Source: Eledone cirrhosa (taxonomy: Eukaryota). From it: DNA of 64,000 nucleotides. Below the pieces are notes generated by a model. That model saw nothing but the letters and a program-made list of their open reading frames with translations. It had not been told where the DNA came from and ran no database searches. The position numbers and the translations under genes were made by a program. The stretch covers positions 20,026,001 through 20,090,000 of the forward strand of contig OZ024753.1 in the NCBI GenBank assembly GCA_964016885.1, in the 5' to 3' direction. Below, piece after piece: positions 21,167 through 61,432 of this stretch (position 1 is its first letter; each line of letters opens with the position of its first letter).

Positions 21167-21274
21167 AAAAAAAAATTAATAAATAAATAAAAAATAAAAT
21201 AAAAATAAAAAAAGAAATATATATATATATATATATATAATATAAGATCAAAAGATGGTTAAAGGAGTTCCATG

Positions 21275-21345
21275 TATTTTATTATGCGCATTTCAAAAAC
21301 AAACATCATCATGCAATAATATTTGTGTTTTCATCAGATAAAACA
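21275..21345 (-). ncRNA. Type I hammerhead ribozyme, family P4
   Basis: Minus strand: TGTTTTAT-CTGATGA-aaacac..gtttgttttt-GAAA-TGCGCA-TA-ATAAAATA. Confidence 0.85.
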
Positions 21346-21524
21346 GGAGAACATGATATGAAGGCTAAAAAATACTTGTGGATAGTGCAGTTTTAAATCA
21401 ACATATCTTATAAATCAACATATCTTTTAAATCAACATATCTTATTTATCAGTTTTAAATCAACATATTCTTATCCGATATCTGCATTGCTTTATTGTAC
21501 TACAATAAAACTCACCTCCTACAG

Positions 21525-22435: not shown

Positions 22436-23146
22436 TCATGCCTTCATGTCGTCATGGAAAGACCTAACTAAAGCAAGGAATGTATCAGGGCAACCAAGTT
22501 TCTGGAGAACCTTCCATAATGCATTTCTGTTAACAGTATCGAAAGCTTTTGTCAGATCGACAAAAACCTGATACAGATCCAAGCCTTGTTCCATGCACTT
22601 CTCCTGGGGCTGTCTAGCTGAGAAGATCATATCAGTAGTGCCGCGTCCAGCACGAAAACCAGATTGACTTTCAGGAAGAACACAATCTGCAATGTGTGTC
22701 AGCAGACGGTCCAGAGGCACCCTACAAAAAACTTTCCCTACGACAGAAAGCAATGATACACCTCTGTAGTTCCCACAATCATTCCTGTTACCCTTTCCCT
22801 TGTACAAGACCACCATTACTGCATCTCCCCAGTCCTCAGGTACGGATTCATTAGCCCATATCCTGCCAAACAAAGAGTGAAGATGTTGCAGGAGTCTCTC
22901 ACCACCATATTGTAGGAGCTCAGCATGTATGCCATCCATACCTGGAGATCTTCCACTGTTCAGCTTCGAAATAGCCACTGCAACCTCCACAAGCGTCGGA
23001 GGTTCTGCGAGAGCTACTTTCACGGGACTTTCTGGAATGAGATTGAAGAAATCTTCACTGACGACAGACGGCTGATTCAAAAGATCATCAAAGTGCTCTC
23101 GCACTTCGTAGAATTCCTTGTGAGTCACGAAGAAGTTCTTTGCCAT
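22436..23146 (-). pseudogene. RTE reverse transcriptase N-terminal part
   Basis: SPGMDGIHAE, YKGKG..DCGNYRGVSLLS, ESQSGFRAGRGTTDMIF, FVDLTKAFDTV. Confidence 0.92.
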
Positions 23147-24302
23147 CCTTGCTGCGAAGCGGTGTCACCAGAGAAGAAGACGGTCCATAAACCTCACGCA
23201 AGAGACTGTACAACAGCTTTGTGTTATTGGAATCTGACGCAGTTTGTATCTCACCAGCCTTCTCACTCCACCACTGATCCTTCATCTGAGAAAGACTCCG
23301 CCTAACACGTGATTTTACATCCTTGAGTTCCTCATGCAACGTATTCCTCTCCTGTGGTTTTGCCGTCAAGTAGCGTGACAGAGCACGCCTCTTATCAGCC
23401 AAAAAGTCTTCTATATGTACATCATTCTCATTAAACCAGTCCTGATGTTTTCTATGCACCAATCCCAGAACACGCCTGCCTACATCATAAACCGACTTTT
23501 TAAGGGTCGGCCAAGCCTCACCAAGATCTGCAGCCTGCATCTCTTCTTCCAATGTCCTCTTCACATTTTTATCCTTAAGACGAGCAGCATTCAAACTTTT
23601 CAGCAGGGCAACACCAGGAGCCCGGATTTTACGTTTAGTGTGTAGTTTCACTTTTACGCGTACCAGGTGGTGGTTCGTCCAGCACTCAGCTCCACGAAGA
23701 GCACGAACACACTGCACATCCTGTCTGTCACGCATCCTGACTAGGACGTAGTCCAAAAGATGCCATTCCTTAGATGCAGGATGCATCCATGTGGTCTTGA
23801 ATTTGTTCTTTTGTTGGAACATGGTGTTGGTAACATACAGATCCAGCTCCTCACACATATGCAGCAGGAGCATACCATTGTTGTTACACTTTCCCACCCC
23901 ATGCCTTCCGATTACATTCCATGTGTTAAAATCCCTACCCACTCTAGCATTGAAGTCACCAAGCACGATGACTTTGTCTGCCTGAGGGATATTTCTTAAA
24001 ACACCTTTCAAGGCATGGTAAAAGAACACTTTTTCTTCATCGACAGAATTCATAGTTGGAGCATACACACTCACCAGGGTCGCATATCTTCCTTTGTCCA
24101 GCAGAACTCTCATGGACATAAGACGCTCACTAATCCCTACTGGGAATTCTTCTAATTTATTCACAAGTACAGTCTTAACAGCAAATCCTACCCCAGCCTC
24201 TCTTCTGGTTCCTTCATCTCTTCCATTACAGAAGAATGTATATTCTCTACAAAATTCTGTAAGATGACCATCTCCAGCTAACCTCGTCTCAGATAAAGCC
24301 AC
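23088..24302 (-). pseudogene. RTE apurinic-type endonuclease domain ORF
   Basis: ALSETR, GVGFAV, SVYAPT, LGDFNARVG, TWMHP..WHLLDYV, CWTNHHLV. Confidence 0.92.
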
Positions 24303-24649
24303 GATGTCAAGATCTTAACGTCGAAGCTCCTTTGCAACAAGAGCGGTCCTTCGTTCAGGACGCTCCAAAGAATCCCTGTCAAGCAGCGTCCGTACGTTCC
24401 AGCAGCCAAGACTAAATGCCTTGTTTGGCTCTATTACAAAGGCAAGATGACGAGCGGGCCAAGGCTGTGATAACCTGGGGCCCCTGCCCTTATTGCCAAT
24501 GATCTTTTTTGTTCCAGAACCTAAATTGCCAATTATCTCTTTTATATTGTTCTGGAACATCATTGAATTGGAAAAAATAAAAAAAAAATTATAATAATAG
24601 TAACAATAATAATAATAATATTAATACACTATTAATAATTATTAATGCA

Positions 24650-25699: not shown

Positions 25700-28600
25700 A
25701 TTCCATCAGTCAACGCGATCAATCGCATATTTTGGCGTGGGAGACTATTTATTAAATTTAAGATGAATACTATCTCCGACAGTAATGCCACAACTACAGC
25801 CAGGTTGAATAACTGGTTATTCTTCTAACTATCCCTTCTGAAGACAACCTTTTATTCGAATTCGTAGAGATATCCGACTAAATACATAATTCATTTTACA
25901 AGGATTTGCTACAAACAGCATGGTTGAACACAATATCAATAAGAAAATTAAGGAAGTATCGAAGACAAATAACAAAGAAGGTGATCAAACTTTATTCACT
26001 TGTAGCTACTGAAGAAACCGAAATTATAAATCGCATTTCTCTTGGAGTTGCGAACTTAATAATGATTTATTTAATTGTTATAAAATGGCAAAAAAATCCT
26101 TCCATTGGCTATATGAATAGAATGAAGCTACACTGGGACGAAATGCACCCAGAGCTAAATTATTTCACAGCGAAACAATTGCGCCAACAACAGATAAATA
26201 TTATTAATTATAAGTCGCCCACAACAAACATGGAATCAACAACACGTGCTACACATCGCCATGCTACTAGACTTCCTAGCAGCCAGGTCGAACAGCGCCT
26301 TGAAACAACTATGCCTGTAAGAAACTTGACACCACCTGTACCATCTAAGTCTACCTCGATTGCTGGGGAAAAACACTATCGATAAAATTAATAATCGAAG
26401 AAATAATAATAATAATCGAATAAATGTGACACCACGTATACCATCCGAGTCTACCTCGACTGTTGTGGAAAATACTATCGATAATTGTTTCTACTTTTGG
26501 CACAAGGCCAGTAATTACCCAGTGCATTACCCTGGTACTTTATTTTATCGACCCCGTAAGGATGAAAGGCAAAGTCAACCTCGGCGGGATTTGAACTCAG
26601 ATCGTAAAGGGACGTAACTATGCTGGAAAGCATGGCGTCCGACCCTCTACTGATGCTGCCAAATGATAATCAAAAGTATAAACAATTGAAAATTTCTCTC
26701 AACGAAATCTTCCAGAGAAAAAATTAAGTCATGTACAAATATCTCTCTGGCTGAATGTGTTAAAATGACAATGGTGAATAAAAAACCAAATAATGAAATA
26801 CTACGTGTTATTGACGAAATAGGGGATGAATATTTACGACGGATAAAAACCCCGACATTTTGGCAAATCAACGCCTGTTTATATGCCTTAGCAATGACAG
26901 TGAAGCATTATCTTGGTGATAGCAGAGATATTAACAAGAACAAAACACCACCAAAAATACCATTATATATAACTAAAATAGAAAAAAAGAGTGCTGACCT
27001 ACGAAAAAACATAGGACATGTGATAATGCTCTTTACATGAAAACAAACACAAAAAAACCTCACTCCTTACCAACAAAGAGTGAAAAATAAAATAGAGACG
27101 ATGTTTGGTAACAGTAGAACCAGAACTCTCCAATATAAGCTGATCACCCTCAAACAAGAATTGAGAACTGTTAGCGAAAAACGCCGATACCTGAAGAAGG
27201 TAGATGAGAGAAAAATGCTTAATAAAAGATTCAGACGAAACCAAACTTCAGTCTATAGAGATATGAAGGGCAAAATAATAAGTGTCACTGAGGCCCCATC
27301 CCAGAAAGACATAGATTCCTTTTGGAGAAAAAATATGGGGTGAAAAGAAGAATTTCAACCAAGATGCAGTGTGGCTAAGAGAAATCTGAAAGAACTATTG
27401 CTCCTAAACTACAACAAAAACATACGAAATAAGTGAGGGTAGCCTTGAAACTGTGATAGGAAAACTCTAAGATAAGAAAACACAAGGAAGAGACATGATT
27501 GTCGGCTACTGGTACAAAAAACTAATATTCTATCGGAGGTATCTTACTGACCTCTACCAACAAGTTCTTAAGGGAGATACACTTATACCAGAATGGTTGA
27601 CATTAGCACAAACGTTACTGGTCCCCAAGAACAATGACACCCACTTGGCAAAAAACTAACGACCCATTCCATGCCAGAACCTGATGTATAAGAGGTATAC
27701 AGCCTGCCTCAAACTATTCCTCCAAGATCACTGTGAAAATGATAACATCATCACAGATGAACAAGCAGCTGGAAAGAAAAGGGTTTGGGGATATGCTGAA
27801 CAACTCCTAATCAACAAAACTGCGATGTCGGAGGTGCGACAACTTAGTAGGAATATGACTACAGTCTGGCTGGACTACAAGAAAGCTTTCGATTCTGTTC
27901 CCCACTCTTGGATGATAGAGGCCCTCCAACTTGCTAAAGTCCCAGACATTATTGTCAGAGCCATAGAGAGGCTGTCTTCTTCTTGGGCTACTATCCTAAG
28001 GTTAAAGACAGAGAGGGAGGACTCTATTTTCACTGATAAAATAAAATATTGCAGGGGTATTTTTCAGGGGGACAGTCTCTCTGTGATATTGTTCATCTTG
28101 TCATTAAACCCGTTGCCCTTTCTGCTCAAGAAATGTGAGGCATACATCATTGGCTCAGAGGAGGACTAAAATACAAATCTAACCCATAACTTCTTTGTGG
28201 ACGATCTGAAACTCTATGCCAAGAACATGGATGGGATGAAGAAAAATCTTGAACTGGTTAAAACGTTCTCAAAGGATATAGGAATGGAGTTTGGCCAGTA
28301 TAAATGCTCATACATGACTGTAAAGCGGGGGAAAACAACAACCCAATCTAGCAACATTGTCATCAATGGTCTAACTGTTTCACCGGTATCTGATGAGGAC
28401 TGATACAGATACCTGGGGATAGATAAGAACATATCATATAAGGGTATATGTAATAACGAACGCGGAACCAGGGAATACTACACCCGATTAAGAAAGATCT
28501 GGTCATCGGAACCCTCTGAGCAAAACAAAACAGTGGCTCACAGTGTGTTTCCTGTGCCTGTCCTAACACCAATGTTTGGAATACTCAATTGGACGATAGA

Positions 28601-30000
28601 TGAAATCCGAGCAGTTGATGTTGGAACTCGAAAAATACTGAACAACACCGGAACCTTCCACATCAACAGTGACATAGGCCGCCTATAGTTCAAACGTAAG
28701 CAGGGAGGCAGAGGCCTAACATCAGTGCAGACAACATTTGAATGTCGCATCATATGTCTCCGACAACATCTACGAACCTCGAAGCGTAGGAGCCCGCTTC
28801 TCGAGCAAGTCTATCTGCATGAAACAGATAAGATCATGAGAGTTGGGAAGGAACTCCTTGAGAGATATTCCATGTGTGATAATCAAAAACTCACACCCCG
28901 GGATGTCGCTCAGCAGTATCGCAGTGAATCTATGGATAAAAAACTGCATGCCTATCAGCAAAATATCATGCATGGATATGTTGCCAGGAAGCTCCAGAGT
29001 AAGAGTAATATAGATAAGGAAAGTAGTCTATCTTGGACCAACAACTGCTATATTGGCTCCCACTTTGAAGGATATGCTTTTGCAATCCAAGAACAGTAGA
29101 TTAACACGAAATACCTGATTCACAAAAGAGATAGGGATGCAGGCAAAACACCTAGATGTGATAACAAGTGCAGACACTGCAGAACTAACATCGAGGATAT
29201 CACCCATGTGATCAGCAGCTGTCCAAAGATGTCATCGCGGTACTATCTACCTATGAGGCATGATGTAGTGGCCAAAACACTGTACAATGCAGTTCTTAAA
29301 AAAGATAGCCCCGATAATAAACACATTAAAAGCTACAACAATGTGGAAGACATCCATGTACATAATATGAAAGAGTACTGGTGGAATGTTCCAGTAAAAA
29401 CCCCAATAAAATGCAGGCATAACAGACCAGATATTATGATATGGGACAGGGAGAAGAAAACATGTACAGTAGTGGAAATTAGCTGCCCAGCAGATGCCAA
29501 TATTATATCAAAGATTAGTGAAAAGGAGAATAGTTATTCAGAACTGATGAGAAATCTGCAGATACTCCACCCTGATTACACCTTCAGATGTATGCCTGTG
29601 ATTATTGGGGCACTGGGATATGTTAGTAACTGCCTCGATACAAATCTTGAGAAGCTAGGCTTTCAAAGGAACAGAAAGAACACAACTAGTTAGGAAATTA
29701 CAAGTACAATCCATTAATGGAACAGTACAAATATGTAAAACATTCCAAACATTTTGCATCTAATAACTGCATATACACATGTACAGATACAAAGCATATA
29801 CACATGCACACATACAACTCAAAACATCCACATCCACACATACAATAACATCCATATCTACACATGCATGCATGCAGGCATACATACATATCTACCTAGT
29901 TGATGTTATGTAAATTCCAATGAGAGAGTCTTGTGTCTATGTTAGAAACCGACTCTCTCTCTATTGGTAAAACTTTGTGAAATTATAAAACCAGAAGAAC
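25700..30000 (+). mobile_element. R4/Dong-type non-LTR retrotransposon, full length, inactivated
   Basis: N-terminal WDEMHPE..KQLRQQ; RT EQAAG, WLDYKKAFDSVPHSW, GIFQGDSLS, FVDDLKL; CCHC CRHC..EDITHVISSC; RHD; RLE RPDIM..VVEISCP; (CATA)n on both flanks; many stops. Confidence 0.93.
26481..26661 (-). mobile_element. SINE family 1 inserted into the Dong copy
   Basis: Absent from the homologous site in the next copy (actatcgataatgataatcaa at ~30820-30840). Confidence 0.9.
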
Positions 30001-30051
30001 ATACATACATACATACATACATACATACATACATACATACATACATACATA

Positions 30052-33000
30052 CAACGCGATCAGTCGCATATTTTGGCGTGGGAGACTATTTATTAAATTT
30101 AAGATGAATACTATCTCCGACAGTAATGCCACAACTACAGCCAGGTTGAATAACTGGTTATTCTTCTAACTATCCCTTCTGAAGACAACCTTTTATTCGA
30201 ATTCGTAGAGATAACCGATTAAATACATAATTCATTTTACAAGGATTTGCTACAAACAGCATGGCTGAACACAACATAAACAAAAATATTAAGGAAGTAT
30301 CGAAGACAAATAACAAAGAAGGTAAAAAAATTGTATTCAGTTGTAGCTACAGAAGAAACAGAAATTATAAATCGCATTTCTCTTGGAGTTGCGAACTTAA
30401 TAATGATATATTTAATTGTTATAAAATGTCAAAAAAAATCCCTCAATTGACTATATGAATAGAATAAATCTACACTAGGACGAAATGCACCCAGAGCTAA
30501 ATTATTTCACAGCGAAACAATTACGCCAACAAGCGACGTTTGTTGAACGTAAAAATAAGATAAATATTATTAATTGTAAGTCCCCCACAACAAACATGGA
30601 ATCAACAACACGTGCTACAGATCGCCATGCTACTAGACTTCCTAGCAGCCAGGTCGAACAGCGCCTTGAAACAAGTATGCCTGTAAGAAACTTGACACCA
30701 CCTGTAATGCTGGGGGAAACACTATCGATAATAATAATAATCGAAGAAATAATTATAATAATCGAATAAATGTGACACCACGTATACCATCCGAGTCTAC
30801 CTCGGATGTTGTGGAAAATACTATCGATAATGATAATCAAAAGTATAAACAATTGAAAATTTCCCTCAACGAAATCTTCCAGAGAGAAATTAACTCATGT
30901 ATAAATATATCTCTTGCTGAACGTGTTAAAATGACAAACGTGAATAAAAAAACTAAATAATGAAATACTACATGTTATTGACGAAATAGGGGATGAATAT
31001 TTACGACGGATAAAATCCCAACATTTTTGCAAATCAACGCCTGTTTATATGCCTTAGCAATGATAGTGAAGCATTATCTCGGTGATAGCAGAGATATTAA
31101 CAAGAACAAAACACCACTAAAAATACCATCATATATAACTAAAATAGAAAGAAAGAGTGCTGACCTACGAAAAAAACCATAGGATATGTGGCAATCCTCC
31201 TTACATGCAAACAAACACAAAAAAACCTCACTCCTCACCAACAAAGAGTGAAAAATAAAATAGAGACGACGTTTGGTAATAGTAGAACCAGAACTCTCCA
31301 ATATAAGCTGATCACCCTCAAACAAGAATTGAGAGCTGTTAGCAAAAAACGCCGATACCTGAACAAGGTAGATGAGAGAAAAATGATTAATAAAACATTC
31401 AGACGAAATCAAACATCAATCTATAGAGATATGAAGGGCAAAATAATAAGTGTCACTGAGGCCCCATCCCAGAAAGACATAGATTCCTTTTGGAGAAAAA
31501 TATGGAGTGAAAAGAAGTATTTCAACCAAGATGCAGTGTGGCTAAGGGAAATCCGAAAGAACTATTGCTCCTACACTACAACAAAAACATACGAAAGAAG
31601 TGAGGGTACCCTTGAGACTGTGATCGGAAAACTCCAAGATAAGAAAACACCAGCAAGAGACATGTTTGTCGGCTATTGGTACAAAAAACTAATATTCTAT
31701 CGGAGGTATCTTACTGACCTCTACCAACAAGTTCTTAAGGGAGATACACTTACACCAGAATGGTTGATATTAGCACAAACGTTACTGGTCCCCAAGAATA
31801 AAGACACCCACTTGGCAAAAAACTACCGACCAGTTGCATACCAGAACCTGATGTATAAGATGTATACAGCCTGCCTCAACCTATTCCTCCAAGATCACTG
31901 TGAAAATAATAGCATCATCACAGAGAACAAGCAGCTGGAAAGAAAGTCGTGTGGGGATGTGCTGAACAACTCCTAATCAACAAAACTGTGAGTCGGAGGT
32001 GCAACAACTTAGGAGGAATATGACTACAGTCTGGCTGGACTACAGGAAAGCTTTCGATTCTGTTCCCCACTCTTGGATAATAGAGGCCCTCCAACTTGCT
32101 AAAGTCCCAGACATTATTGTCAGAGCCATAGAGAGGTTGTCTTCTTCTTGGGCTACTATCCTAAGGTTAAAGACAGAGAGGGAGGACTCTATTTTCACAG
32201 ATAAAATAAAATATTGCAGAGGTATATTTCAGGGGGACAGTCTCTCTGTGATATTGTTCATCTTGTCATTAAACCCCTTGTCCTTTCTGCTCAAGAAATG
32301 TGAGGGATACATCATTGGCTCACAGGAGGACAGAAATACGAACCTAACCCATAAATTCTTTGTGGACGAACTGAAACTCTATGCCAAGAACATGTATGGG
32401 ATGAAGAAACATATTGACTGGTTAAAACGTTCTCAAAGGATATAGGAATGGAGTTTGGACAAGATAAATGCTCATACATGACTGTAAAGCGGGGAAAAAC
32501 AACAACCCAATCAAGCAACATTATCATCAATGGTCTAACTGTTTCACCTGGGGATAGATGAGAACATTTCCTATAATGGTATCTGTAATAAAGAACGCGT
32601 AACTAGGGAATACTACACCCGATTAAGAAAGATCTGGTCATCAGAACCCTCTGCGCAAAAAAAAACTGTGGCTCACAATGTGTTTGCTGTGCCGGTCCTA
32701 AAACCAAAGTTTGGAATACTCAACTGGACGACAGGCGAAATCCGAGCAGTTGCTGTTGGAGCTCGAAACATTCTAAACAACACCGGAAACTTCAACATCA
32801 ACAGTGACATAGACCGCCTTTACTTGAAACGTAAGCAGGGAGGCAGAGGCCTAACATCAGTCCAGACAACATTTGAATGTCGCATCATATCTCTCCGACA
32901 ACATATACGAACCTCGAAGCGTAGGAGCCCGCTTCTCGAGCAAGTCTATCTGCATGAAACAGATAAGATCATGAGAGTTGGGAAGGAACTCCTTGAGAGA

Positions 33001-34037
33001 TATTCCATGTGTGATAATCAAAACCTCACACCCCGGGATGTCGCTCAGCAGTATCGCAGTGAATCCATGGATGAAAAACTGCATGCCTATCAGCAAAAAT
33101 CATGCATGGATATGTTGCCAGGAAGCTCCAGAGTGAGAGTAATATAGATAAGGAAAGTAGTCTATCTTGGACCAACACCGCTATATTGGCTCCCACTTTG
33201 AAGGATTCGGTTTTGTAATCCAAGAACAGGAGATTAGCACGAAATACCTGATTCACAAAAGAGATAGGGATGCAGGCAAAACACCTAGATGTGATAACAA
33301 GTGCAGACTCTACAGAATTAACATAGAGGATATCACCCATGTCATCAGCAGCTGTCCAAAGATGTCATCGCGGTACTATCTAACTATGAGGCATGATGTA
33401 GTGGCCAAAATACTCTACAATGCAGTTCGTAAAAAAGATAGCCACGATAATAAACACATTAAAAGCTACAACAATGTGGAAGACATCCATGTACATAATA
33501 TGAAAGAGTACTGGTGGAATGTTCCAGTAAAAACCCCAATAAAATGCAGGAATAACCGACCAGATATTATGATATGGGACAGGGAGAAGAAAACATGCAC
33601 AGTAGTGGAAATTAGCTGCCCAACAGATGCCAATATTATATCAAAGATTAGTGAAAAGGAGAATAGTTATTCAGAACTGATGAGAAATCTGCAGATACTC
33701 CACCCTGATTACACCTTCAGATGTATGCCTGTGATTATTGGGGCACTGGGATATGTTAGTAACTGCCTCGATACAAATCTTGAGAAGCTAGGCTTCACAG
33801 GAACAGAAAGAACACAACTAGTTAGGAAACTACAAGTACAATCCATTAATGGAACAGTAAAAATATGTAAAACATTCCAAAATTGTTGCATCTAATAACT
33901 GCATATACACATGTACAGATACAAAGCTTATATACAAGCACACAAACAACTCAAAACATACACATCCACACATACAATAACATCCATATCTACACATGCA
34001 TGCATACATATCTACCTAGTTATGTAAATTCCAATGA
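30052..34037 (+). mobile_element. R4/Dong-type element, second near-full copy, head-to-tail with the first
   Basis: Same domains (ORFs 31188-31976, 31999-32445, 33167-33895); separated from copy 1 by ~50 bp of (CATA)n; lacks the last part of the 3'UTR. Confidence 0.93.
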
Positions 34038-34515: not shown

Positions 34516-36580
34516 AATAATTTCATTTATTTCTCGCTAATAATAGTAATAAAATGTGTAAGATGATTAACAAGGAAAAGCAATAACAATAACGGTATCA
34601 ATAATTATAATGACTATGATAACGGTACACTAATGATCGATATTAATAACATCAAACATTAGAATTATTATTATCATTATTACTATTATCGTTATTATTA
34701 TTATTGTTATTATTATCCACATCATCACCTCCATCATTAATATATGTTATTATAAAATACACTATCTTACAATTTGCACCCCCCATGTTGCCTAAGTGAT
34801 GATTTCCTCTTTTTGTTTTTCTTTTGAAGTGTCTAGCAGATTCATATCTAAATAGCTACGAGAAAGGAAGAAAATATTATTTATTGTCATTAAAACACGT
34901 TTATAAATGTGATAATGAATATTCTCTGATTCTGTGATTCGACCCATGCAGCCGTTAGGATATTTATTGACTTTTTAATGAATTTCAGTCATTGAATATC
35001 TTCAATATCAACAAAATAAATCCGACTAGGAAACCACCAACATCTGTCTAACGTCGTGGTTGGTTACGACATATCTGATGATTACCGACTGGGAGAAATC
35101 TGGTACCCCCATACCTCAACAGAAAGAAGCGAGGTGAATATTCTCAGATTAATTCACAGCAGACAATCGACAGGGGTTTCAAAACCGCCAACAAAAGTTG
35201 AAACGATCTATTGAGAGATACAACTGACCATTGTCATTGGAGCACCTTAGCTGCCTCATCTGCCCCAACACGTAGGAGTTTCTAAGTCTAAGTATGATAC
35301 TTTGAATAATAGTTCAATGCGGTGTATCGTTGTTTGTGACATAAGTCTTGCACGTTGATCATTAGAAGAGACCCGCGATATCCATCTCCTGGTCTAGTCC
35401 GTATTTCTATCACAAAATACAGAAGATAAGAGGGAAAGAGTCAGACACTACGTGACTACTGGAGCTGCTAGTAATGACAAAGGAATACCTCACAAATTAC
35501 ACTCTGGTGATGATTGACCCTCCGTCGATTTCAATGATGATCTTTCAAACATTCGATAAATTGAACGTTCCATTTATGAAATAAGATAATATGTAAATAG
35601 TTGAGTATTCCACAGTCACGTGAACCATTACCGCTAATTCTAAGACAGAATCTGAGTTACACAATTTGTAACCGGGTCCAAATCTTTGAATTACGGGTAG
35701 GGCTTCCACACAGTTTCCGTCTACCTGATTTCATTTTCAAGCTTTGGCTCGAGCCGATGTTAAGATAATGCATGTATGGCTTTCGTTAATGAAGCAACAG
35801 TGTAAACCTTTCTTTCGTTAATGAAGCAACAGTGTAAACCTTTCTTAAGATCTGGACTGTGATAACGTGAAATATAACCTTTTTCTCTGCAATATCACGC
35901 TCTAGTAAAAATCAATAATTTCTCACAATCCTAACTCCAAGTACACTTCATAGATACATACACCACTTTCGTTAAAACAAAATATAGTATCTTACAGCAG
36001 AATAGTTAAAATATAAGGGACAATGAGTTATTTGTTGCATTCTTCTCTTTATCTGAGTTCATATCACGCGGGAACATTTTGCCTTCATCGTTTTATCGGA
36101 ATACTGGAGCATTGGAAAAGATGGGTGACGATAAATGTTTCCATTTCGTAGTTTCCGAGTTCAAATATTGCAACCAGAAAACGTTTCATTTTTATTTTTT
36201 TTAAATTGGACGTAATCGCTGACAGGAGAGGAAAGACATTAATGATGAGACCGAGTATTTCAGAAGTTCCAGTTTGGTATATTGGTAGAACACTGACGAT
36301 TGCTCTACCAATATACAACATTCTCACCATACTAGTGTCCTCGTTCAAGCTTTTTTTTCATCACTCCGATCCGTTTCTCCTACATATGTTATATTCATAT
36401 TTCAACATTATTTTACAGATTCAGCTGGCCATAAATCAAAATATCACACATCACCAAAGTAATATTAATTATAGATACTAATCAATCATCTATTTGCCGT
36501 CATACGAACACATATTTGCCATGTTATATATATATATATATTCTTAATGTTATATGTCTCTCTCTCTATCTATATATATG

Positions 36581-36650
<70 letters not shown>

Positions 36651-36772
36651 TTCTATTCAATATAGTATATATATATAATACATTCTATTATATATATATA
36701 AGTTCTATACAAATAGAACTCACAACATTAAGTTCTAGTTTGAATATGTCACTATCTCTAAACCAACTTTTG

Positions 36773-36995
36773 TATTTTATCTGATGAGGGCGCACCAAAA
36801 TGTTGGTACCCTTGAAATATATATATAATTGTTTCTACTTTTGTCACAAGGCCAGCAATTATCCCAGTGTATTACTGGTACTTTATTTTATCGACCCCGT
36901 AAGGATGAAAGGCAAAGTTAACCTCGGCGGGATTTGAACTCAGCCTGTAAAGGGACGTAACTGTGCTACAAAGCATGGAGTCCGACAATAAAATA
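36773..36995 (+). ncRNA. Type I hammerhead (family P5) interrupted by a SINE
   Basis: TATTTTAT-CTGATGA-stem II-GAAA-TATATATA.. then SINE 36826-36986, then stem I partner ATAAAATA. Confidence 0.7.
36826..36986 (-). mobile_element. SINE family 1, slightly 5'-truncated
   Basis: Core, B box and tail. Confidence 0.9.
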
Positions 36996-37058
36996 AATAT
37001 GGTTTTATAAAGATAGCTTCCATTTATTAATATTATACATATATATATATATATATAT

Positions 37059-37317
37059 ATAATATATAAGATCAAAAGATGGTTAAAAGAGTTCCATGTA
37101 TTTTATTATGCGCATTTCAAAAACAAATATCATCATGCAATAACATTTGCATTTTAGTCAGATAAAATATGAAATGCGCATAATAAAATACATGAAACTC
37201 TTTTAACCATCTTTTGATCTTATATATTATTTATACTCCAGTCCTACAAACTGTAGAGTCCTTCTTATCCGATATCTGCATTGTTTTATTGTACGACAAT
37301 AAAACTCACCTCCTACA
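37059..37317. mobile_element. Family P4 fold-back element
   Basis: Arms 37059-37119 / 37170-37230; ends AATAAAACTCACCTCCTACA + (TA)n. Confidence 0.8.
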
Positions 37318-37377
37318 TATATATATATATATATATACGATATTAACAAATGGAAACTATATTTATAAAACCATATT

Positions 37378-37442
37378 TATTTCATTATACATATTTCAGG
37401 GATACCAAATTAAATTATGGTATGCCTTCATCAGACAAAATA
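37378..37442 (-). ncRNA. Type I hammerhead ribozyme, family P5
   Basis: ATTTTGT-CTGATGA-AGGcATACCA..TGGTATcCCT-GAAA-TATGTA-TA-ATGAAAT. Confidence 0.85.
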
Positions 37443-37661
37443 CAATATATAACAGTTTTACAAATAAGCTTTGACGTACCCTTTTAAAATGCAACCATTA
37501 TTTTTGGAAGCCATCTGGATAGTGAATTGTTTATATTATTTTAATAAGTATAAGTGTTATTAAAATAATATAAACAATTCACTATCCAGATGGCTTCCAA
37601 AAATAATGGTTGCATTTTAAAAGGGTACGTCAAAGCTTATTTGTAAAACTGTTATATATTG

Positions 37662-37726
37662 TATTTTGTCTGATGAAGGAATACCATAATTTAATTTGGT
37701 ATCCCTGAAATATCTATAATGAAATA
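37662..37726 (+). ncRNA. Type I hammerhead ribozyme, family P5
   Basis: ATTTTGT-CTGATGA-AGGaATACCA..TGGTATcCCT-GAAA-TATCTA-TA-ATGAAAT. Confidence 0.85.
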
Positions 37727-37880
37727 AATATGGTTTTATAAATATAGTTTCCATTTATTGATATCGTATATCTACTCCAAATACTTGTCGAGTGCTTTAT
37801 ATCAGTTATAAAAATATTTACTTGTTGTATCCCAACAATTTTAAATAGAACTTTTGCATATATATATATATATATGTGAA

Positions 37881-38092
37881 GGCGTGTGGCTGAGTGGTTA
37901 GAGAATTGGATTCGCAATCGTAAGGTTGTGAGTTCGATTCCCGGACCAGGCGATGCGTTATGTCCTTGAGCAAGACACTTTATTTCACGTTGCTCCTTCT
38001 ACCTGGAGTTGCGACCGATAGATAGTATTAGCAATTGGAAAGACCAACGGAAACATTGTTCCCTCGGTCCGATTTGACGAAAGTCGATCGTT
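37881..38092 (+). mobile_element. tRNA-derived SINE family 2 (CORE-like)
   Basis: A box TGGCTGAGTGG, B box GAGTTCGATTCC, core TGTCCTTGAGCAAGACACTT; copy at 50892. Confidence 0.88.
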
Positions 38093-38229
38093 CCTATATA
38101 TATGTAGGAGGTGAGTTTTATTGTAGTACAATAAAGCAATGCAGATATCGGATAAGAAGCACTCTACAGTTTTTAGGACTGGAGTATACATAATATATAA
38201 GATCAAAAGATGGTTAAAAGAGATCCATG

Positions 38230-38300
38230 TATTTTATTATGCGCATTTCAAAAACAAACATCATCATGCAATAATATTTGTATTTTCATCAGATAAAATA
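38230..38300 (-). ncRNA. Type I hammerhead ribozyme, family P4
   Basis: TATTTTAT-CTGATGA-stem II-GAAA-TGCGCA-TA-ATAAAATA. Confidence 0.87.
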
Positions 38301-38418
38301 GGAATACATGATATGAAGGTTAAAAAACACTTGTGAATAGTGCAGTTTTAAATCAACATATGTTGATTTAAAACTGCACTATTCACAAGTGTTTTTTAAC
38401 CTTTATATCATGTATTCC

Positions 38419-38489
38419 TATTTTATCTGATGAAAACACAAATATTATTGCATGATGATGTCTGTTTTTGAAATGCGCATAATAAAATA
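38419..38489 (+). ncRNA. Type I hammerhead ribozyme, family P4
   Basis: TATTTTAT-CTGATGA-AAACAcAaAT..ATgTcTGTTTTT-GAAA-TGCGCA-TA-ATAAAATA; perfect 8-bp stem I and intact core. Confidence 0.88.
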
Positions 38490-38517
38490 CATGGAACTCT
38501 TTTAACTATCTTTTGAT

Positions 38518-38558
<41 letters not shown>

Positions 38559-38622
38559 TCAATCACTCTCATTCTCTCTTATCTCTGTGTCTATCTCTAA
38601 CTTCTTACATCATATGATATAC

Positions 38623-38664
<42 letters not shown>

Positions 38665-38666
38665 CT

Positions 38667-38711
<45 letters not shown>

Positions 38712-39413
38712 TTCATCGTAGCAGATGGCTGTTACAGAGCTATTTTCACGTTTCAGATTCCTAGAATTTTACGAAATATTTATACACTCAACACTCCAAA
38801 CCAATGAGGTTTTTTTTAAATCTCAACTAACAGACTAATTCTATGTAGTCAAATACGGCGTAAGCAGATGTTACTACCTAATTTTCAAATACGCTACCTG
38901 TTAGTAAACAAAACCTGCTTTGTTTTTCCCTATTTATAAACATATATATACCTGCTATGGTTATATCGCTTCTAATTGAATGTAAGGAAACATGGATGGC
39001 GTGTTGGTTTAATGGTAACACATTGGTCCGGAAACCAACGATGTTGAATAGTTATATACGTCAATAATCATCCTTTTTTCTATTCAGAGGGTTTTTAAAA
39101 TCCCAACTAACAGACTAATTCTATGTAGGAAATAATTTCTAAAAAAGTGTTTGAAAAGCGTACCTATATATATGTATAGGAGCTTTATAACATGTACAAA
39201 AGTTAATGTTATTAGGTTTGATTGATTTTTTCATTAAAACTCCTGCATGCTGATCCTCGATCACATTGGCTGATCAGTGGATCTCATATTATGCAGATCT
39301 GACTGACCAGGCAGTTTGCTAATATGCAAATCAGGCCGATCAGTCACTGTATATTTTAGAAAATATCATATATTTTCACTAGTTCTGACAATTGGCAGGT
39401 AAACAGTATACTG

Positions 39414-45318: not shown

Positions 45319-46737
45319 TGTCTTCTTCTTTGGCTAGTATCCTAAAGTTAAAAACAGAGAAGGAGACAGCTTCTCTATAGTCCTGATATTAGTCTCTGGG
45401 ACTTTAGCAAGTCGGAGGGTCTCTATCTTCCAAGAGTGGGGAAACATAATTAAATTCTCTCCTGTAGTCCAGCCAGACTGTAACCATATCCATCTAAGTT
45501 GTCGCACCTACGATTTCGCAGTTTTATTAATTAGGAGTTGTTCATCACACCCCCAAACACCTTTCTTTCCAGCTGCTTGTTCCTCTGTGATGATGTTATT
45601 ATTTTCACAGTGATCTTGAAGAAATAGGTTCTGGTATACAATGGGTTGGTAGTTGTTTGCCAAGTGGGTGTTTTTGTTCTTGGGGACCAGTATTGTTTGT
45701 GCTAATGTCAACGATTCTGGTATAAGTGTATCTCCCTTGAGAACTTGTTGGTAAAAGTCCATAACATACATCCGATAGAATATCAGTTTTTTGTACCAGA
45801 AACCAACAATCATGTGTCTTCCTGGTGTTTTCTTATCTTGGAGTTTTCCTATCACAGTCTCAAGGGTATCCTCATTTATTTAATATGTTTTTGTTGTAGT
45901 CTAGGGATAATAGTTCTTTTGGATTTCTTTTAGCCACACTGCAACTTGGTTGAAATTCTTTTTTTCACCCCAGGATTTTCTCAAAAGGAATATATGTCTT
46001 TCCAGGACGGGGCCTCAGTGACATTTATTATTTTGCCCTTCATATCTCTATAGTCAGATGTTTGGTGTCATCTGAATCTTTTATTAATTACTTTTCTTTC
46101 ATCTACTCTCTTAAGGTAGCGGCGTTTCTCTCTGACAGCTCTCAATACTTGTTTGAGAGTGATCATCTTATATTGAAGAGTTCTGGTTGTAGTGGCACCA
46201 AATATAGTTTCAAACATCCAGTCCAAACCCCAATAAAATGCAAGCATAACATATCAGATATAATGATATGGGACAGGAAAAAGAAGGCATGCACAGTAGT
46301 GGAAGTTAGCTGCCCAGCAGATGCCAATATAATTTTAAAGATTAACGAAGCGGAGAATACCTTTGCAGAACTAATGGAAACTTTGCAGGTACTCCACCCT
46401 GACTATACTTTCAGATTTATATCTGTAATTATTGGAGCACTCGGGTGTGTTAGTAACTGCCTCAGTACAAATCTTGAGAAGCTGGACTTCACAGGCACAG
46501 AAAGAACTCAACTAATTAGGAAATTCCAAGTACAATCCATTAATGGAACATTAAAAATATGTAAGACATTCCAAAGATTCTACAAGTAATAACTGCATAT
46601 ATGCATGTATACACATTCATGTATGCAGACATACATATCTTCATAGTTGATGTGTAAATTCCGATCAGAGAGTCTTGTGTTAGAAATCGACTCTCTTTCT
46701 ATTAGTAAAGATTTATAAAATTATAAAACCAGAACAA
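45311..46737. mobile_element. Rearranged, more diverged R4/Dong copy (+ / inverted / +)
   Basis: 45311-45368 is an RT piece on +, ~45370-46190 an N-terminal/RT piece on -, 46217-46737 RLE + 3'UTR on +. Confidence 0.88.
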
Positions 46738-46883
46738 AATACACACACATACATAAATACATGCAGTCATGCATACATACATAATACATGCATGCATGCA
46801 TGCATACACACATACATACATCCATACAAACATACATACATGCATACATACATATTTAAATGCATGCATACATTCATAGATGA

Positions 46884-47408
46884 CGATAGCTGCCCCTCGC
46901 TATCGAGTATGGCCATTGCACGATAGATCATTATTAATAAATATTAATTAATTCTATCGTGCAATGCCTGTGCAAGAAGATATTTTTTATAGTGAGGAAA
47001 GACTGTGCACTGAGCCAATCCCACTCTCTGAGCTACAGTAGCTATAACCCGAAAAGAAGAAAAGATCAACATCATCGGTAACTACTGAGCCGCAGGTTTT
47101 ATATCGGAGTTATCCCAGTTTCCTGAGTTACCTTCTCCTAGAAGAATGCCCTGAGAAAGACTAGGGGTCCTTCACTCCCAATGGTTTAACCGCGTGATAC
47201 ATATGTATATACATATTTACACATTTTTGGATGGCACTTGACTCTAATGAGTTCTTCCGACCTTTGTCAGGTTTTGTTTTTTGTCCTGCAGGGGGTCCAA
47301 AATCACCCTCCCCACCAAGTAAATTTGGTGGGGTTGCCGGGTTAGTCGCCGAAGACCCGACCCTGCGACAGGTTGTATTGGGTTACATGTTACACGAGAG
47401 TGACACGA
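46884..47408 (-). mobile_element. Family B copy
   Basis: Matches 17770-18400. Confidence 0.85.
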
Positions 47409-47437
47409 CATACATGCATACATAGATATATACATAC

Positions 47438-47742
47438 ATGGTGGCTGCCAACTCGTTTTCGAGTACTGCACTACTTTATATCCATGTAGGAGAACCCCTA
47501 CCGTTGCGCTGAACGAGTGTGACGTTTTAGTCCAGCCAGCATCTTGAAAACTCTGGTACAAACACTTGTGACAATTATTGACACATAGTGCTGGGCCCAT
47601 GGTACCATGTGACGACAAGTGCAGAGAGATCTCCAGATATAAAGCAATGCACGTGCCGTGAAGCTTTTATAGCGAGCAAAGGCACTGCACAAAGCCAGTC
47701 CCACTCTCTTAACCAAGATGATATTTACCAAAAAGAAGAACA
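47438..47742 (-). mobile_element. Family A copy, 3' half only
   Basis: Reverse complement of ~4050-4360. Confidence 0.88.
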
Positions 47743-47783
47743 TACATACATACAAACATACATACATACATACTTACATAAAG

Positions 47784-49730
47784 ACAGATAAAGTAAAATG
47801 TCACAGGTGTATATTTCGGAGGGACAGGCTCTCTGTGATATTATTCATCTTGTCATTAAACCCCTTGTCCGATCTGCTCAATAAATCTGAGGGATACATC
47901 ATTGGCTCACAGGAGGACAGAAATACGAACCTAATCCATAAATTATTTGTGGACGAACTGAAACTCGATGCCAAGAACATGGATGGGATGAAGAAAAATA
48001 TTGACCTAGTTACAACGTTCTCAAAGGATATAGGAATGGAGTTTGGCCAAGATAAATGCTCATACATGACTGTAAAGCGGAGAAAAACAACAACCCAATC
48101 TAGCAACATTGTCATCGATGGTCTAACTATTTCAGCGATATCTGATGAGGACTGTTACAGATACCTGGGGATAGATGAGAACATATCCTATAATGGTATC
48201 TGTAATAAAGAACGCGTAACCAGGGAATACTACACCTGATTAAGAAAGATTTGGTCATCGTAACTCTCCGCACAAATCAAAACAGTGTCTCACAATGTGT
48301 TTGCTGTGCCTGTCCTAACACCAACGTTTGGAATACTCAATTGAACGATAGACGAAATCCGAGCAGTTGATGTTGGAACTCGAAAAATTCTAAACAACAC
48401 CGGAAATTTCCACATCAACAGTGACATATACCGCCTTTACTTGAAACGTAAGCAGGGAGGCAGAGGCCTAACATCAGTCCAGACAATATTTGATTGTCGC
48501 ATCATATCTCTCCGACAACATATACGAACCTCGAAGCGTAGGAGCCCGTTTCTCGAGCAAGTCTATCTGCATGAAACAGATAAGATCATGAGAGTTGGGA
48601 AGGAACTCATCGAGAGATATTCCCTGTGTGATAATCAAAAACTCACACCCAGGGAAGTCGCTCAGCGGAATCGCAGTGAATCCATGGATGAAAAACTGCA
48701 TGCTTATCAGCAAAAAATCATGCATGGATATGTTGCCAGGAAGCCCCAGAGTGAAAGTAATATAGATAAGGAAGTAGTCTATCTTGGACCAACAACTGCT
48801 ATATTGGCTCCCACTTTGACGGATATGCTTTTGCAATCCAAGAACGGGAGATTAACACGAAATACCTCATTCACAAAAGAGATAGGGATGCAGGCAAAAT
48901 ACCTAGATGTGATAACAAGTGCAGATTCTGCAGAAATAGCATCGAGGATATCACCTATGTCATCAGCAGCTGTCCAAAGATGTATCGCGGTAGTATCTAC
49001 CTATGAGGCATAATGTAGTGGCACAAACACTGTACAATGCAGTTCGTAAAAATGATAGCCCCGATAATAAACACATTAAAAGCGATGTGGAAGACATCCA
49101 TGTACATAATATGAAAGAGTACTGGTGGAATGTTCCAGATAAAACCCCAATAAAATGTAGGCATACCAGACCAGATATTATGCTCTGCGACAGGGAGAAG
49201 AAAGCATGCACAGTAGTGGAAATTAGCTGCCCAGTAGAAGCCAATATAATATCAAGGATTAGCGAAAAGGAAAATATTTATGCAGAAATGAAGAGAAATC
49301 TGCAGATACTCCACCCTGATTACACCTTCAGATGTATGCCTGTGATTATTGGGGCACTGTGATATGTGAGTAACTGCCTTAATACAAATCTTGAGAGGCA
49401 GGGCTTCACAGGAACAGAAAGAACACAACTAGTTAGGGAATTACAAGTACAATCCATTAATAGAACAGTAAAAATATGTAAAACATTGCAAACATTTTGC
49501 AACTAATAACTGCATATACACATGTACAGATACAAAGCATATACACATGCACACATACAACTCAAAACATCCACATCTACACATAAAATAACATCCATAT
49601 CTACACATGCATGCAGACATAATCAACCTACTTGATGTGTAAATTCCAATGAGAGAGTATTGTGTCTATGTTAGAAAACAACTCACTCTTTATTGTGAAA
49701 GAATTTGTGAAATTATAAAACCAGAAGAAC
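47784..49730 (+). mobile_element. R4/Dong copy, 5'-truncated within RT
   Basis: RT C-half, CCHC, RLE and end CCAGAAGAAC|ATACATAC. Confidence 0.92.
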
Positions 49731-50803: not shown

Positions 50804-50891
50804 ATATATATATATATGTATGTACATATACACATATATATACATACATATATATATATATATATATACATACATATATATATATAGTGAT

Positions 50892-51106
50892 GGCGTGTGG
50901 CTGAGTGGTTAGAGAACCGGACTCGCAATCGTAAGGTTGTGAGCTCGACTCCTGGACCAGGCGATGAGTTATGTCCTTGAGCAAGACACTCCATTTCACG
51001 TTGCTTCCTCCACCTGGAGTTGCGACCGATAGATAGTATTAGCAATTGGAAAGACCAATGGAAACATTGTTTCCTCGGTTCGATTTGACGAAAGTCGATC
51101 GATTGG
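50892..51106 (+). mobile_element. SINE family 2
   Basis: Matches 37881-38092. Confidence 0.88.
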
Positions 51107-51116
51107 AAAAAAAAAT

Positions 51117-54013
<2,897 letters not shown>

Positions 54014-54052
54014 AATTTATTGCATACATACATATTATTATTACAAATATAC

Positions 54053-57000
54053 ATATTACGTGTTATTGACGAAATCGGGATGAATATTTACGACGGATAA
54101 AAACCCCAACATTTTAGCAAATCAACGCCTGTTTATATGCCCTAGCAACGACAGTGAAGCATTATCTCGGTGATAGCAGAGATATTAACAAGAACAAAAC
54201 ACCACCAAAAATACCATCATATATAACTAACATAGAAAAAAAGAGTGCTGACATACGAAAAAACATAGGACATGTGATAATGCTCTTTACATGAAAACAA
54301 ACACAAAAAAACCTCACTCCTCACCAACAAGAGTGAAAAATAAAATAGAGACGATGTTTGGTAACAGTAGAACCAGAACTCTCCAATATAAGGTGATCAC
54401 CCTCAAACAAGAATTGAGAGCTGTTAGCGAAAAACGCGGATACCTCAAGAAGGTAGATGAGAGAAAAGTGATTAATAAAATATTCAGACGACAGTCTTTA
54501 GAGATATGAAGAACAACATAAGTGTCACTGAGGCCCCATCCCAGAAAGACATAGATTCCTTTTGGAGAAAAATATGGGGTGAAAAGAAGAATTTCAACCA
54601 AGATGCAGTGTGGCTAAGGGAAATCCGAAAGAACTATTGCTCCTACACTACAACAAAAACATACGAAATAAGAGAGGGTACCCTTGAGACTGTGATAGGA
54701 AAACTCCAAGATAAGAAAACACCAGGAAGAGAAATGATTGTCGGCTACTGGTACAAAAAACTGATATTCTATCGGAGGTATCTTACTGACCTCTACCAAC
54801 AAGTTCTTAAGGGAGATACACTTATACCAGGTTGGTGGACATTAGCACAAACATTACTGGTCCCCAAGAACAAAGACACCTACTTGGCAAAAAACTACCG
54901 ACCCATTGCATGCCAGAAACTGATGTATAAGATGTAAACAGCCTGCTTGAAACTATTCCTCCAAGATCACTGTGAAAATAATAACATCATCACAGATGAA
55001 CAAGCAGGTGGAGAGAAAGGGGTCTGTGATGTGCTGAACAACTCCTAATCAACAAAACTGCGATGTCGGAGGTGCGACAACTTAGGAGGAATATGACTAC
55101 AGTCTGGCTGGACTACAGGAAAGCTCTCGATTCTGTTCCCCACTCTTAGATGATAGAGGCCATCCAACTTGCTAAAGTCCCAGACATTATTGTCAGAGCC
55201 ATAGAGAGGCTGTCTTCTTCTTGAGCTACTATCCTAAGGTTAAAGACAGAGAGGGAGGACTCTATTTTCACAGATAAAATAAAATATTGTATGGGTATAT
55301 TTCAGGGGGACAGTCTCTCTGTGATATTGTTCATCTTGTCATTAAACCCCTTGTTCTTTCTGCTCAAGAAATGTGAGGGATACATCATTGGCTCACAGGA
55401 GGACAGAAACACGAACCTACCCCATAATTTCTTTGTGGACGATCTGAAACTCTATGCCAAGAACATGGATGGCATGTAGAAAAATATTGACCTGGTTACA
55501 ACGTTCTCAGAGGATATAGGAATGGAGTTTGGCCAAGATAAATACTCATAGAAGTTTGTAAAGCGGGGAAAAACAACAACCTGCTCTAGCAACATTGTCA
55601 TCAATGGCCTAACTGTTTCACCGATATCTGATGAGGACTGTTACAGATACCTGGTGATAGATGAGAACATATCCTATAATGGTATCTGTAATAAAGAACG
55701 CGTAGCCAGGGAATACTACACCCAATTAAGAAAGATCTGGTCATCGGAACTCTCTGCGCAAAACAAAACAGTGGCTCACAATGTGTTTCCTGTGCCTGTC
55801 CTAACACCAACATTTGCAATACTCAATTGGACGATAGACGAAATCCGAGCAGTTGATGTTGGAACTCGAAAAATACTAATCAACACCGGAAACTTCCACA
55901 TCAACAGTGACATAGACCGCATTTACTTGAAACGTAAGCAGGGAGGCAGAGGCCTAACATCAGTCCAGACAACATTTGAATGTCGCATCATATCTCTCTG
56001 ACATCTATGAACCTCGAAGCGTAGGAGCCCGTTTCTCGAGTAAGTCTATCTGCATGAAACAGAGAAGATCATGAGAGTTGGGAAGGAACACCTCGAGAGA
56101 TATTCCCTGTGTGATAATCAAAAACTCACACCCACGGAAGTCGCTCAGCGGAATCGCAGTGTATCCATGGATGAAAAACTGCATGCTTATCAGCAAAAAA
56201 TCATGCATGGATATGTTGCCAGGAAGCTCCAGAGTGAGAGTAATATAGATAAGGAAAATAGTCTCTTACTTGGATCAACAACCGCTATATTGGCTCCCAC
56301 TTTGAAGGATACGCTTTTGCAATCCAAGAACAGGAGATTAACACGAATTACCTGATTCACAAAAGAGATAGGGATTCAGGCAAAACACCTAGATGTGATA
56401 ACAAGTGCAGACTCTGCAGAACTACCATAGAGGATATCACCCATGTCATCAGCAGCTGTCCAAAGATGCCATCGCGGTACTATCTACCTATGACGCATGT
56501 TGTAGTGGCCAAAACACTCTACAATGCAGTTCGTAAAAATGATAGCCCCGATAATAAACACATTAAAAGCTATAGCAATGTGGAAGACATCCATGTACAT
56601 AATATGAAAGTGTACTGATGGAATGTTCCAGTAAAAACCCCAATAAAATGCAGGCATAACAGACCAGATATTATGCTATGGGACAGGGAGAAGAAAGCAT
56701 GCACAGTAGTAGAAGTTAGCTGCCCAGCAGATTCCAATATAATATCAAAGATTAATGAAAATGAGAATAGTTACGCAGAACTGCTGAGAAATTTGCAAAT
56801 ACTCCAGCCTGATTACACCTTCAGATTTATGCCTGTGATTATTGGGGCACCGGGATATGTTAGTAACTGCCTCAATACAAATCTTGAGAAGCTAGGCTTC
56901 ACAGGAACAGAAAGAACACAACTAGTTAGGAAATTACAAGTACAATCCATTAATGGAACAGTAAAAATATGTAAAACATTGCAGAAATTGTGCATCTAAT

Positions 57001-57689: not shown

Positions 57690-57783
<94 letters not shown>

Positions 57784-57818
57784 AAAGAATAGAGGTGTAA
57801 CACACAAGTTATTATATA

Positions 57819-58247
<429 letters not shown>

Positions 58248-58302
58248 ATTATATATCAAGTAAGAATATTTTCGAAACAACGAGTAGGTTTGAAATTATT
58301 AA

Positions 58303-58519
58303 AAATGTAAGTTATCGCCGTATTTTGACTAAAAAAATTAAAAAAATTATTTAGCCTGATAGTGGGGTTGAGAACCCTCGGAGAAATGGAAAAAGATGAG
58401 TGTTGACGTACATGTACGTCAATACTCATCTTTTTCCATTTCTCCGAGGGTTCTTAACCCCACTATCAGGCTAAATAATTTCTTTAATTTTTTTAGTCAA
58501 AATAAGGCGATAACTTACA

Positions 58520-58522
<3 letters not shown>
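58303..58522. repeat. Zero-spacer palindrome with 110-bp arms
   Basis: Centre GACGTACA|TGTACGTC at 58412/58413. Confidence 0.92.
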
Positions 58523-58563
<41 letters not shown>

Positions 58564-58669: not shown

Positions 58670-58857
58670 AACGAAGGAGATGTGGTAAGTACCCAGATGG
58701 ACCATAACGCACCAAAGTACTCAATACTTAGTGTAGTAGAGTGGGTAATAGGAACAAGTAGGACCCCGACGGCTGAGCTCAAGCCGTTTCGCGGCTAATT
58801 CTGGACTAAATGAAAATGTTTATCCTGGTAAATGAATAGCTGAACTTCTCAGGGGAT
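58670..58857 (-). mobile_element. Family P1 copy with a nearly complete, decayed hammerhead (58763-58857)
   Basis: ATCCC-CTGAGAA-..GCTATTC...GAATTAGC..-GAAA-CGGCT-tgagctc-AGCCG-TC-GGGGT. Confidence 0.65.
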
Positions 58858-59963: not shown

Positions 59964-60027
<64 letters not shown>

Positions 60028-60433: not shown

Positions 60434-60483
60434 AAAGAGATTAAAAAAATTGTTTGTATAGCAAACCGTGTCACTCTTCTTTC

Positions 60484-61432
<949 letters not shown>

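Follow-up and report, generated by a model that had tools for sequence, protein, structure and literature searches.

Fold-backs and hammerhead motifs in a TA-rich tract

The window, by which we mean the whole 64-kb stretch of DNA analysed, contains a cluster of four neighbouring units, designated C, A1, B, and A2, belonging to two repeat families, A and B (Table 1). Three of the units are fold-backs with arms of 66 nt (37054-37119/37170-37235, 97% identity), 218 nt (37330-37547/37557-37774, 98% identity, spacer of 9 nt), and 167 nt (38193-38359/38360-38526, 97% identity, no spacer). The original prediction, made from the letters of the sequence alone, had placed three fold-backs here, as is confirmed.

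A strict scan for type I hammerhead ribozymes on both strands of the window gave five matches, four in the cluster and one outside it (Table 1). All five share an 8-bp stem I (including G-U pairs), the core CUGAUGA, the GAAA motif, a UA cleavage site, and a 6-nt insert in stem III (TGCGCA, TATCTA, or TATGTA); an AATAAA motif overlaps stem I, in DNA that is 70% AT. With relaxed settings, the scan added a decayed copy in unit A1 (core CUGACUA), together with one unrelated weak match near 36117. A sixth copy in the cluster, in unit C, is split by a dispersed repeat that has eight other copies in the window (120-178 nt, 85-92% identity) plus shorter pieces. The predicted inventory of four intact cores, one decayed copy, and one copy split by a SINE was thus recovered by the two scans and BLAST. 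In the first fold-back, the decayed minus-strand copy was confirmed, and the plus-strand arm carries the 3′ half of a hammerhead only. Between positions 36500 and 38800, four hammerheads are observed, and 1000 order-2 Markov simulations of this region yielded no match at all.

Rfam at gathering scores gave no matches in the whole window, and at E-values up to 10 it gave 52 matches in 36500-38800, none of them a hammerhead. The top sub-threshold matches were microRNA-precursor models, which we rejected as fits to the long hairpin shape. ARAGORN predicted no genes in the sequence, and the AUG within the hammerhead core meets a stop in at most 13 codons.

The motif assignment as dimer-type hammerheads held right. 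Isolated motifs constrained to the hammerhead fold lie within 1.3-2.6 kcal/mol of the minimum free energy, and the closing pair of stem II is A-U instead of the conserved G10.1-C11.1. Stem III had been described as a palindrome or near-palindrome throughout; this is true of family A, where the octamer is predicted to self-pair at -10.5 kcal/mol, but the left arm of unit B pairs only weakly (-2.2 kcal/mol) and its right arm cannot (+1.4 kcal/mol).

Table 1. Positions of the cluster units, the additional family-A copy, the control fold-backs, and the Penelope-like fragment in the window.
Feature	Position	Strand	Remarks
Unit C, 5′ junction: short repeated stubs and TA runs	36648-36771	.	Resembles the inverted end of the family-B tail (47 identities, 21 mismatches, 4 gap columns); weak assignment
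Unit C, B-related arm, type I hammerhead 5′ half	36772-36824 (start approximate)	+	Stem I strand, CUGAUGA, stem II, GAAA, TATATA; 77% to B over 60 nt
Dispersed SINE-like repeat within TA-rich stem III of unit C	36825-36986	.	BLAST; SINE label inferred
Unit C, arm 3′ half, ends tail-less in (TA)n	36987-37040	+	91% to B over 47 nt
Unit A1, tail-less arm	37054-37173	-	5′-truncated at unit position 56; decayed hammerhead 37099-37169
Unit A1, tailed arm	37170-37316	+	5′-truncated at unit position 110; hammerhead 3′ half only; single-copy tail ~37228-37316
Unit B, tail-less arm	37334-37547	-	Intact-core hammerhead 37378-37442
Unit B, spacer between arms	37548-37556		9 nt
Unit B, tailed arm	37557-37770	+	Intact-core hammerhead 37662-37726; self-complementarity of the stem III octamer lost
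Unit B, single-copy tail, ends in (TA)n	37771-37858	+	Weakly alike in sequence to the family-A tail (weak homology)
Second SINE-like repeat, between units B and A2	37877-38093	+	92% over 234 nt to 50869-51101
Unit A2, single-copy tail	38104-38192	-
Unit A2, tailed arm	38193-38359	-	Intact-core hammerhead 38230-38300
Unit A2, tail-less arm, ends in (TA)n	38360-38526	+	Intact-core hammerhead 38419-38489
Unit A3, additional family-A copy outside the cluster	21240-21524	-	Full tail-less arm 21240-21404; intact core 21275-21345
Control fold-back, flush with (TA)n	57780-58151	.	One-sided extension 39 nt; no hammerhead match
Control fold-back, flush with (TA)n	58241-58525	.	One-sided extension 59 nt to TA run; no hammerhead match
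Control inverted repeat, flush with (TA)n	60640-61428	.	One-sided extension 96 nt; no hammerhead match
Control fold-back, flush with (TA)n	62304-62554	.	One-sided extension 81 nt; no hammerhead match
3′ fragment of a Penelope-like element of another family, ends in (TA)n	61454-62278	-	GIY-YIG-like C-terminal frame 61858-62250

The second SINE-like repeat presumably carries tRNA-type A and B boxes. Elsewhere in the window lie LINE-type fragments (22436-24314, minus strand, with an AP-endonuclease Pfam match at 23088-24314; and 62595-63584), as well as three stretches (25882-33895, 45508-49362, and 54479-56999) that we take to be decayed non-LTR copies with a reverse transcriptase (RT) and a C-terminal restriction-like endonuclease; Pfam gave no match on one frame of these copies. 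Two frames in opposite orientation (9984-10385, plus; 11235-11720, minus) presumably derive from a PIF1-type, Helitron-like helicase. Positions 51000-54060 form a degenerate (TA)/(TACA) microsatellite of ~3 kb (GC 11% at 52001-54000).

Asymmetric anatomy, internal controls, and copies in sequencing runs

Every fold-back has two outward-pointing arms, one of which stops at a fixed tail-less end while the other runs ~90 nt further into a single-copy tail (89-91 nt in A1, B, and A2; 89-96 nt when one control is included). All units are TA-bounded, with both ends of each fold-back abutting TA runs, in which target-site duplications cannot be read. The original prediction mentions neither the one-sided tails nor the flanking TA runs nor the additional family-A copy A3, and it names no source for the units. 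One frame of the family-A tail in A2 is open for ~45 codons and one of the family-B tail for ~35 codons. The two have in common a short VECF stretch whose third letters differ, and they may mark where the ORF of the source element begins.

The turn-around centres differ in all three family-A copies of the window (unit positions 1/1 in A2, 56/110 in A1, and 1/202 in A3), with 5′ truncation points varying between arms and between copies. Family A has a recurrent 5′ boundary, at unit position 1 in A2 and A3. The centre of A2 is a self-complementary ATAT overlap (38358-38361). The arms of A3 lack any overlap; its full arm is joined, via a junction made of short repeats of the arm's first bases (21405-21467), to an inverted 55-nt tail stub (21468-21522). 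Head-to-tail tandem units were found in none of the three family-A and neither of the two B-type units of the window.

The same shape occurs in the window where no hammerhead is matched. Among 39 TA-bounded segments of 60-2500 nt, ten hold an inverted repeat of at least 30 nt. In seven of these, one side of the repeat lies flush (0-1 nt) against a TA run and extra sequence follows on the opposite side; in the other three it is not flush. Three of the seven are the cluster fold-backs, and four are unrelated to families A and B by BLAST and gave no match in the relaxed hammerhead scan. As four families with no hammerhead match share the fold-back-plus-tail shape, the shape is independent of the ribozyme. 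These four are likely the ends of other clades of Penelope-like elements (PLEs). One of them has a perfect centre with zero spacer (58412/58413), and a further family occurs as an arm plus inverted stub with non-overlapping arms (2479-2733) and as long inverted arms (59113-60490). This further family has a ~170-nt tail and a CUGAUGA core plus hairpin, with no complete hammerhead by the scans. More copies of the 62304-62554 family lie at 58672-59063, 2094-2217, and 13152-13213, and a 75-nt inverted repeat (12303-12377/12540-12614, 97% identity, 163-nt spacer) is not flush with the TA runs on both sides.

The arms differ at five sites in A2 and four in B, all of the differences being one-sided and none of the nine compensatory. 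At four of these sites (38223, 38282, 37680, and 37760), the letter in the window is rare, the other letter making up 98.6-100% of the depth in run X1, indicating that these changes arose after insertion. The two A2 arms share seven letters that differ from A3, so both derive from one source lineage.

Four of 23 public sequencing runs were aligned, with a likeness threshold of 80%, to a reference made of single arms (37548-38359). The runs of one organism contain both families in highly repeated form, and a second organism also has them. Six of the joints listed (15 of 73) are opposite-strand. Four of them, 38197-38359 (six contigs; 78 reads, two starts), 38134-38359 (98 reads, one start; implying a 30-nt tail stub), 37638-37821 (77 reads, two starts), and 37727-37738 (86 reads, one start), fit head-to-head joins at varied points, the orientation of the joints not being given. 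The remaining two, 37764-37765 (78 reads, one start) and 38103-38103 (12 reads, two starts), fit more poorly, the latter lying at the tail end and not matching the head-to-head pattern. No end-to-start (tandem) joint is among the 15 of 73 listed. In the RAD run, 4598 reads exit family B at 37756 into the tail-less end and then (TA)n.

Depth also steps down where the tail begins. In the X1 contigs, it falls from 1.67M to 0.74M in family A and from 1.40M to 0.57M in family B, and summed contig depth drops by half or more at this boundary in two contig sets; the step is weak in the RAD run (2219 vs. 1689 in family A, climbing to 3001 at the tail end). Up to 38359, the depth of family A remains no more than 2.3-3.5-fold below its peak; at 37576-37603, that of family B lies ~50-100-fold under its peak, depth not being equivalent to copy number in either case. 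Some of the family-B fall may be due to subfamilies that diverge upstream (4650 loose reads at 37655), and the pile-up at 38359 could be sharpened by its coincidence with the reference end. Run X19 (labelled "RNA?", from another organism) has coverage in eight of 29 bins, each of which lies over the SINE-like repeat, and has no bearing on expression. Metagenome pattern scans gave no matches for either family A or family B.

Origin of the units

The units combine inverted 5′-truncated repeats, a tail at one end, a TA target, and a hammerhead in the terminal repeat, as seen in PLE insertions, and we regard them as very probably the debris of such insertions, whichever way the arms were joined. 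Formal membership of families A and B among PLEs lacks a linked ORF, since neither family has an RT or GIY-YIG frame linked to it within the 64-kb window. The PLE fragment at 61454-62278 belongs to neither family; its 61858-62250 frame is GIY-YIG-like (feature matches of 0.96-0.97, one cluster 42% PF01541) and is preceded by a CX4CXXC motif. A Pfam scan of this frame returned no families, and none of 24 candidates was a longer homologue at E ≤ 0.001. A candidate hammerhead-like motif in the 3′ UTR of the fragment (near 61612-61660) folds no better than its shuffles (z = -0.72).

Our preferred reading, which we hold to be likely, joins PLE origin with the head-to-head joining of two cDNAs. The four neighbouring units would be independent short insertions of PLE ends (pseudo-LTR plus tail) into (TA)n. 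By extension from an anole PLE in vitro, an RT-endonuclease supplied in trans would nick both strands of the TA repeat, and one cDNA would be primed at each of the two RT start sites that bound the tail. The 3′ ends of the two cDNAs may then be joined via microhomology, such as the ATAT overlap in A2 or the repeated junction pieces in A3. The hammerhead would be the element's own dimer-type processing motif, presumably serving in source transcripts that are tandem. In the present units it would be a passenger, predicted to be buried within the hairpin of any read-through transcript. After insertion, the arms would drift neutrally as new elements and SINEs accumulate in the same TA tract.

The closest alternative keeps the PLE origin and has the mirror arm copied from a single template by self-priming (snap-back), a mechanism put forward for rotifer Penelope elements (PMC3846280). 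Such copying would leave perfect centres lacking any spacer, as seen in A2 and at 58412/58413, and the seven letters shared by the A2 arms would follow from it, although they also fit two copies of one RNA. However, non-overlapping arms, as in A3 and at 2479-2733, are impossible by snap-back copying and favour two joined cDNAs, and the unequal truncation of the A1 arms and the 30-nt tail stub implied by the 38134-38359 joint also count against it. We consider self-priming unlikely.

Within the preferred reading of two joined cDNAs, we tentatively suggest, at somewhat less than even confidence, that family A represents a non-autonomous PLE passenger, short (~256 nt) and present in very high numbers, which has a defined 5′ end and is scattered through the genome as head-to-head pairs, not as retrozyme tandems, and that this genome offers a large natural data set showing inverted pLTRs to be made from two separately primed cDNAs. 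That one arm is always tail-less and one tailed, and that some arms do not overlap, points this way. Short insertions of such high copy number would allow the two-cDNA and self-priming models to be separated by junction counts.

The type I hammerhead, the low GC, and, in family A, a unit of ~256 nt whose 5′ boundary recurs would also suit scattered monomers of non-LTR retrozymes, a family with tandem repeats of 150-450 bp that are expressed as circles, and retrozymes have themselves been proposed as PLE derivatives (PMC7229834; bioRxiv 10.64898/2026.07.22.740005). Yet head-to-tail tandems are missing from all five family-A and B-type units of the window, and the joints listed (15 of 73) do not run end to start, which makes this origin very unlikely.

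The original prediction had further proposed a functional device, in which a transcript from either strand would form a long hairpin carrying a ribozyme and its antisense, giving self-silencing or switchable cleavage, or a retained substrate for ADAR or Dicer. The hairpin itself is upheld as a prediction, the full-unit folds of the two large units reaching -254 to -330 kcal/mol on both strands. Cores remain intact in four of the six cluster copies, and small RNAs are described from rotifer Penelope copies (PMC3846280). Forcing the hammerhead fold, however, has a predicted cost of 81-99 kcal/mol in the palindrome, compared with 2.6-6.6 kcal/mol when one arm and its tail are folded alone, which lends no support to a cleavage switch. 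In a head-to-head pair, moreover, transcription of either strand passes through the antisense arm before it reaches the sense hammerhead. Each strand carries one sense hammerhead, and a dimer-type motif requires two, which makes a switch unlikely. One core is mutated, one copy is split by a SINE, and one stem III is broken; the lack of compensatory changes among the arm differences and the identical shape in four families without hammerheads also argue against retention. The proposed device therefore finds no support, and we judge it very unlikely indeed. Serving as an ADAR or Dicer substrate is possible as a passive side effect of the predicted folding, and if the host is a cephalopod, as its SINEs and TA repeats may suggest, many such perfect hairpins could passively enlarge the pool of A-to-I editing substrates.

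A MITE or fold-back DNA transposon moving as a preformed palindrome would have the long terminal inverted arms, TA flanks, and high copy number seen here but not the asymmetric ends with a one-sided tail, the copy-specific centres, or the arms that fail to overlap, and is extremely improbable. The same holds for an artefact of assembly or reads. Zero-spacer palindromes are a known long-read artefact, and no aligned record spans a centre, the reference consisting of single arms only; the original prediction had argued against a read chimera from differences between the arms, and one-sided changes on both arms, a tail on one arm only, a design seen seven times, and opposite-strand joints both in a short-read run and in contigs from another run all speak against an artefact.

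These striking ribozyme palindromes are best explained as transposon debris, with a mirror symmetry that is probably incidental to insertion and is predicted to inactivate the ribozyme, and their case counsels caution when similar structures are labelled as riboswitch-like devices, microRNA hairpins, or MITEs.

Comparison with known systems

Craig et al. (2021, PMC8557442) describe PLE insertions as inverted 5′-truncated copies with a 30-40-bp tail at one end and (TA)n targets, and name the origin of tandem and inverted PLE structures as unexplained. Arkhipova et al. (2013, PMC3846280) report head-to-head inverted pLTRs in rotifer Penelope, with a tail on one of them and palindromes at the junction, for which self-priming is favoured. 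The units described here share the head-to-head 5′-truncated copies, the tail at one end, the AT-rich or (TA)n target, and the microhomology or palindrome at the inverted junction. They differ in having no ORF, in tails of 89-91 nt as opposed to 30-40 nt, and in the recurrent 5′ boundary of family A. The CX4CXXC motif before the GIY-YIG-like frame of the separate fragment corresponds to the Neptune/Nematis-type arrangement (PMC8557442).

Variants of PLE hammerheads with a small palindromic helix III and low activity as dimers are reported, as are opposite-strand pairs 100-700 bp apart that probably stem from truncated PLEs (Cervera and De la Pena 2014, PMC4209133). Ours are likewise type I, with a long helix II and, in family A, a palindromic helix III that would need a dimer, and their opposite-strand pairs are spaced about 120 and 220 nt apart. 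Differences are the 8-bp helix I, the 6-nt insert of helix III, and the A-U closure of helix II. In vitro, the protein of the anole Poseidon element PAc nicks AT-rich DNA on both strands and extends each of them, reverse transcription begins at two sites lying at either end of the tail, and insertion does not require the hammerhead (Frangieh et al. 2024, PMC11167929). The two 3′ ends bounding the tail, the AT-rich target, and the hammerhead just upstream of the tail are common to PAc and our units; however, the PAc ORF starts inside the hammerhead, whereas the core AUG here soon runs into a stop. In the papers considered, the joining of two cDNAs is not shown in vivo for a PLE. Judged by titles and the openings of abstracts, literature on octopus hammerheads and Penelope twin priming included no paper on families A and B or on a twin-priming model; relatives of these families may be listed in the supplements of PMC4209133 and PMC8557442.

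Tandem arrangement is the defining feature of retrozymes (PMC7229834; bioRxiv 10.64898/2026.07.22.740005). Animal non-LTR retrozymes resemble our units in being short and non-coding, in carrying a type I hammerhead, and in their proposed dependence on PLEs, but the units here are not arranged head-to-tail. PLEs are active in Octopus vulgaris (PMC13282606). Given that the anatomy has already been published for PLE insertions, families A and B are likely a further, mostly ordinary example of it.
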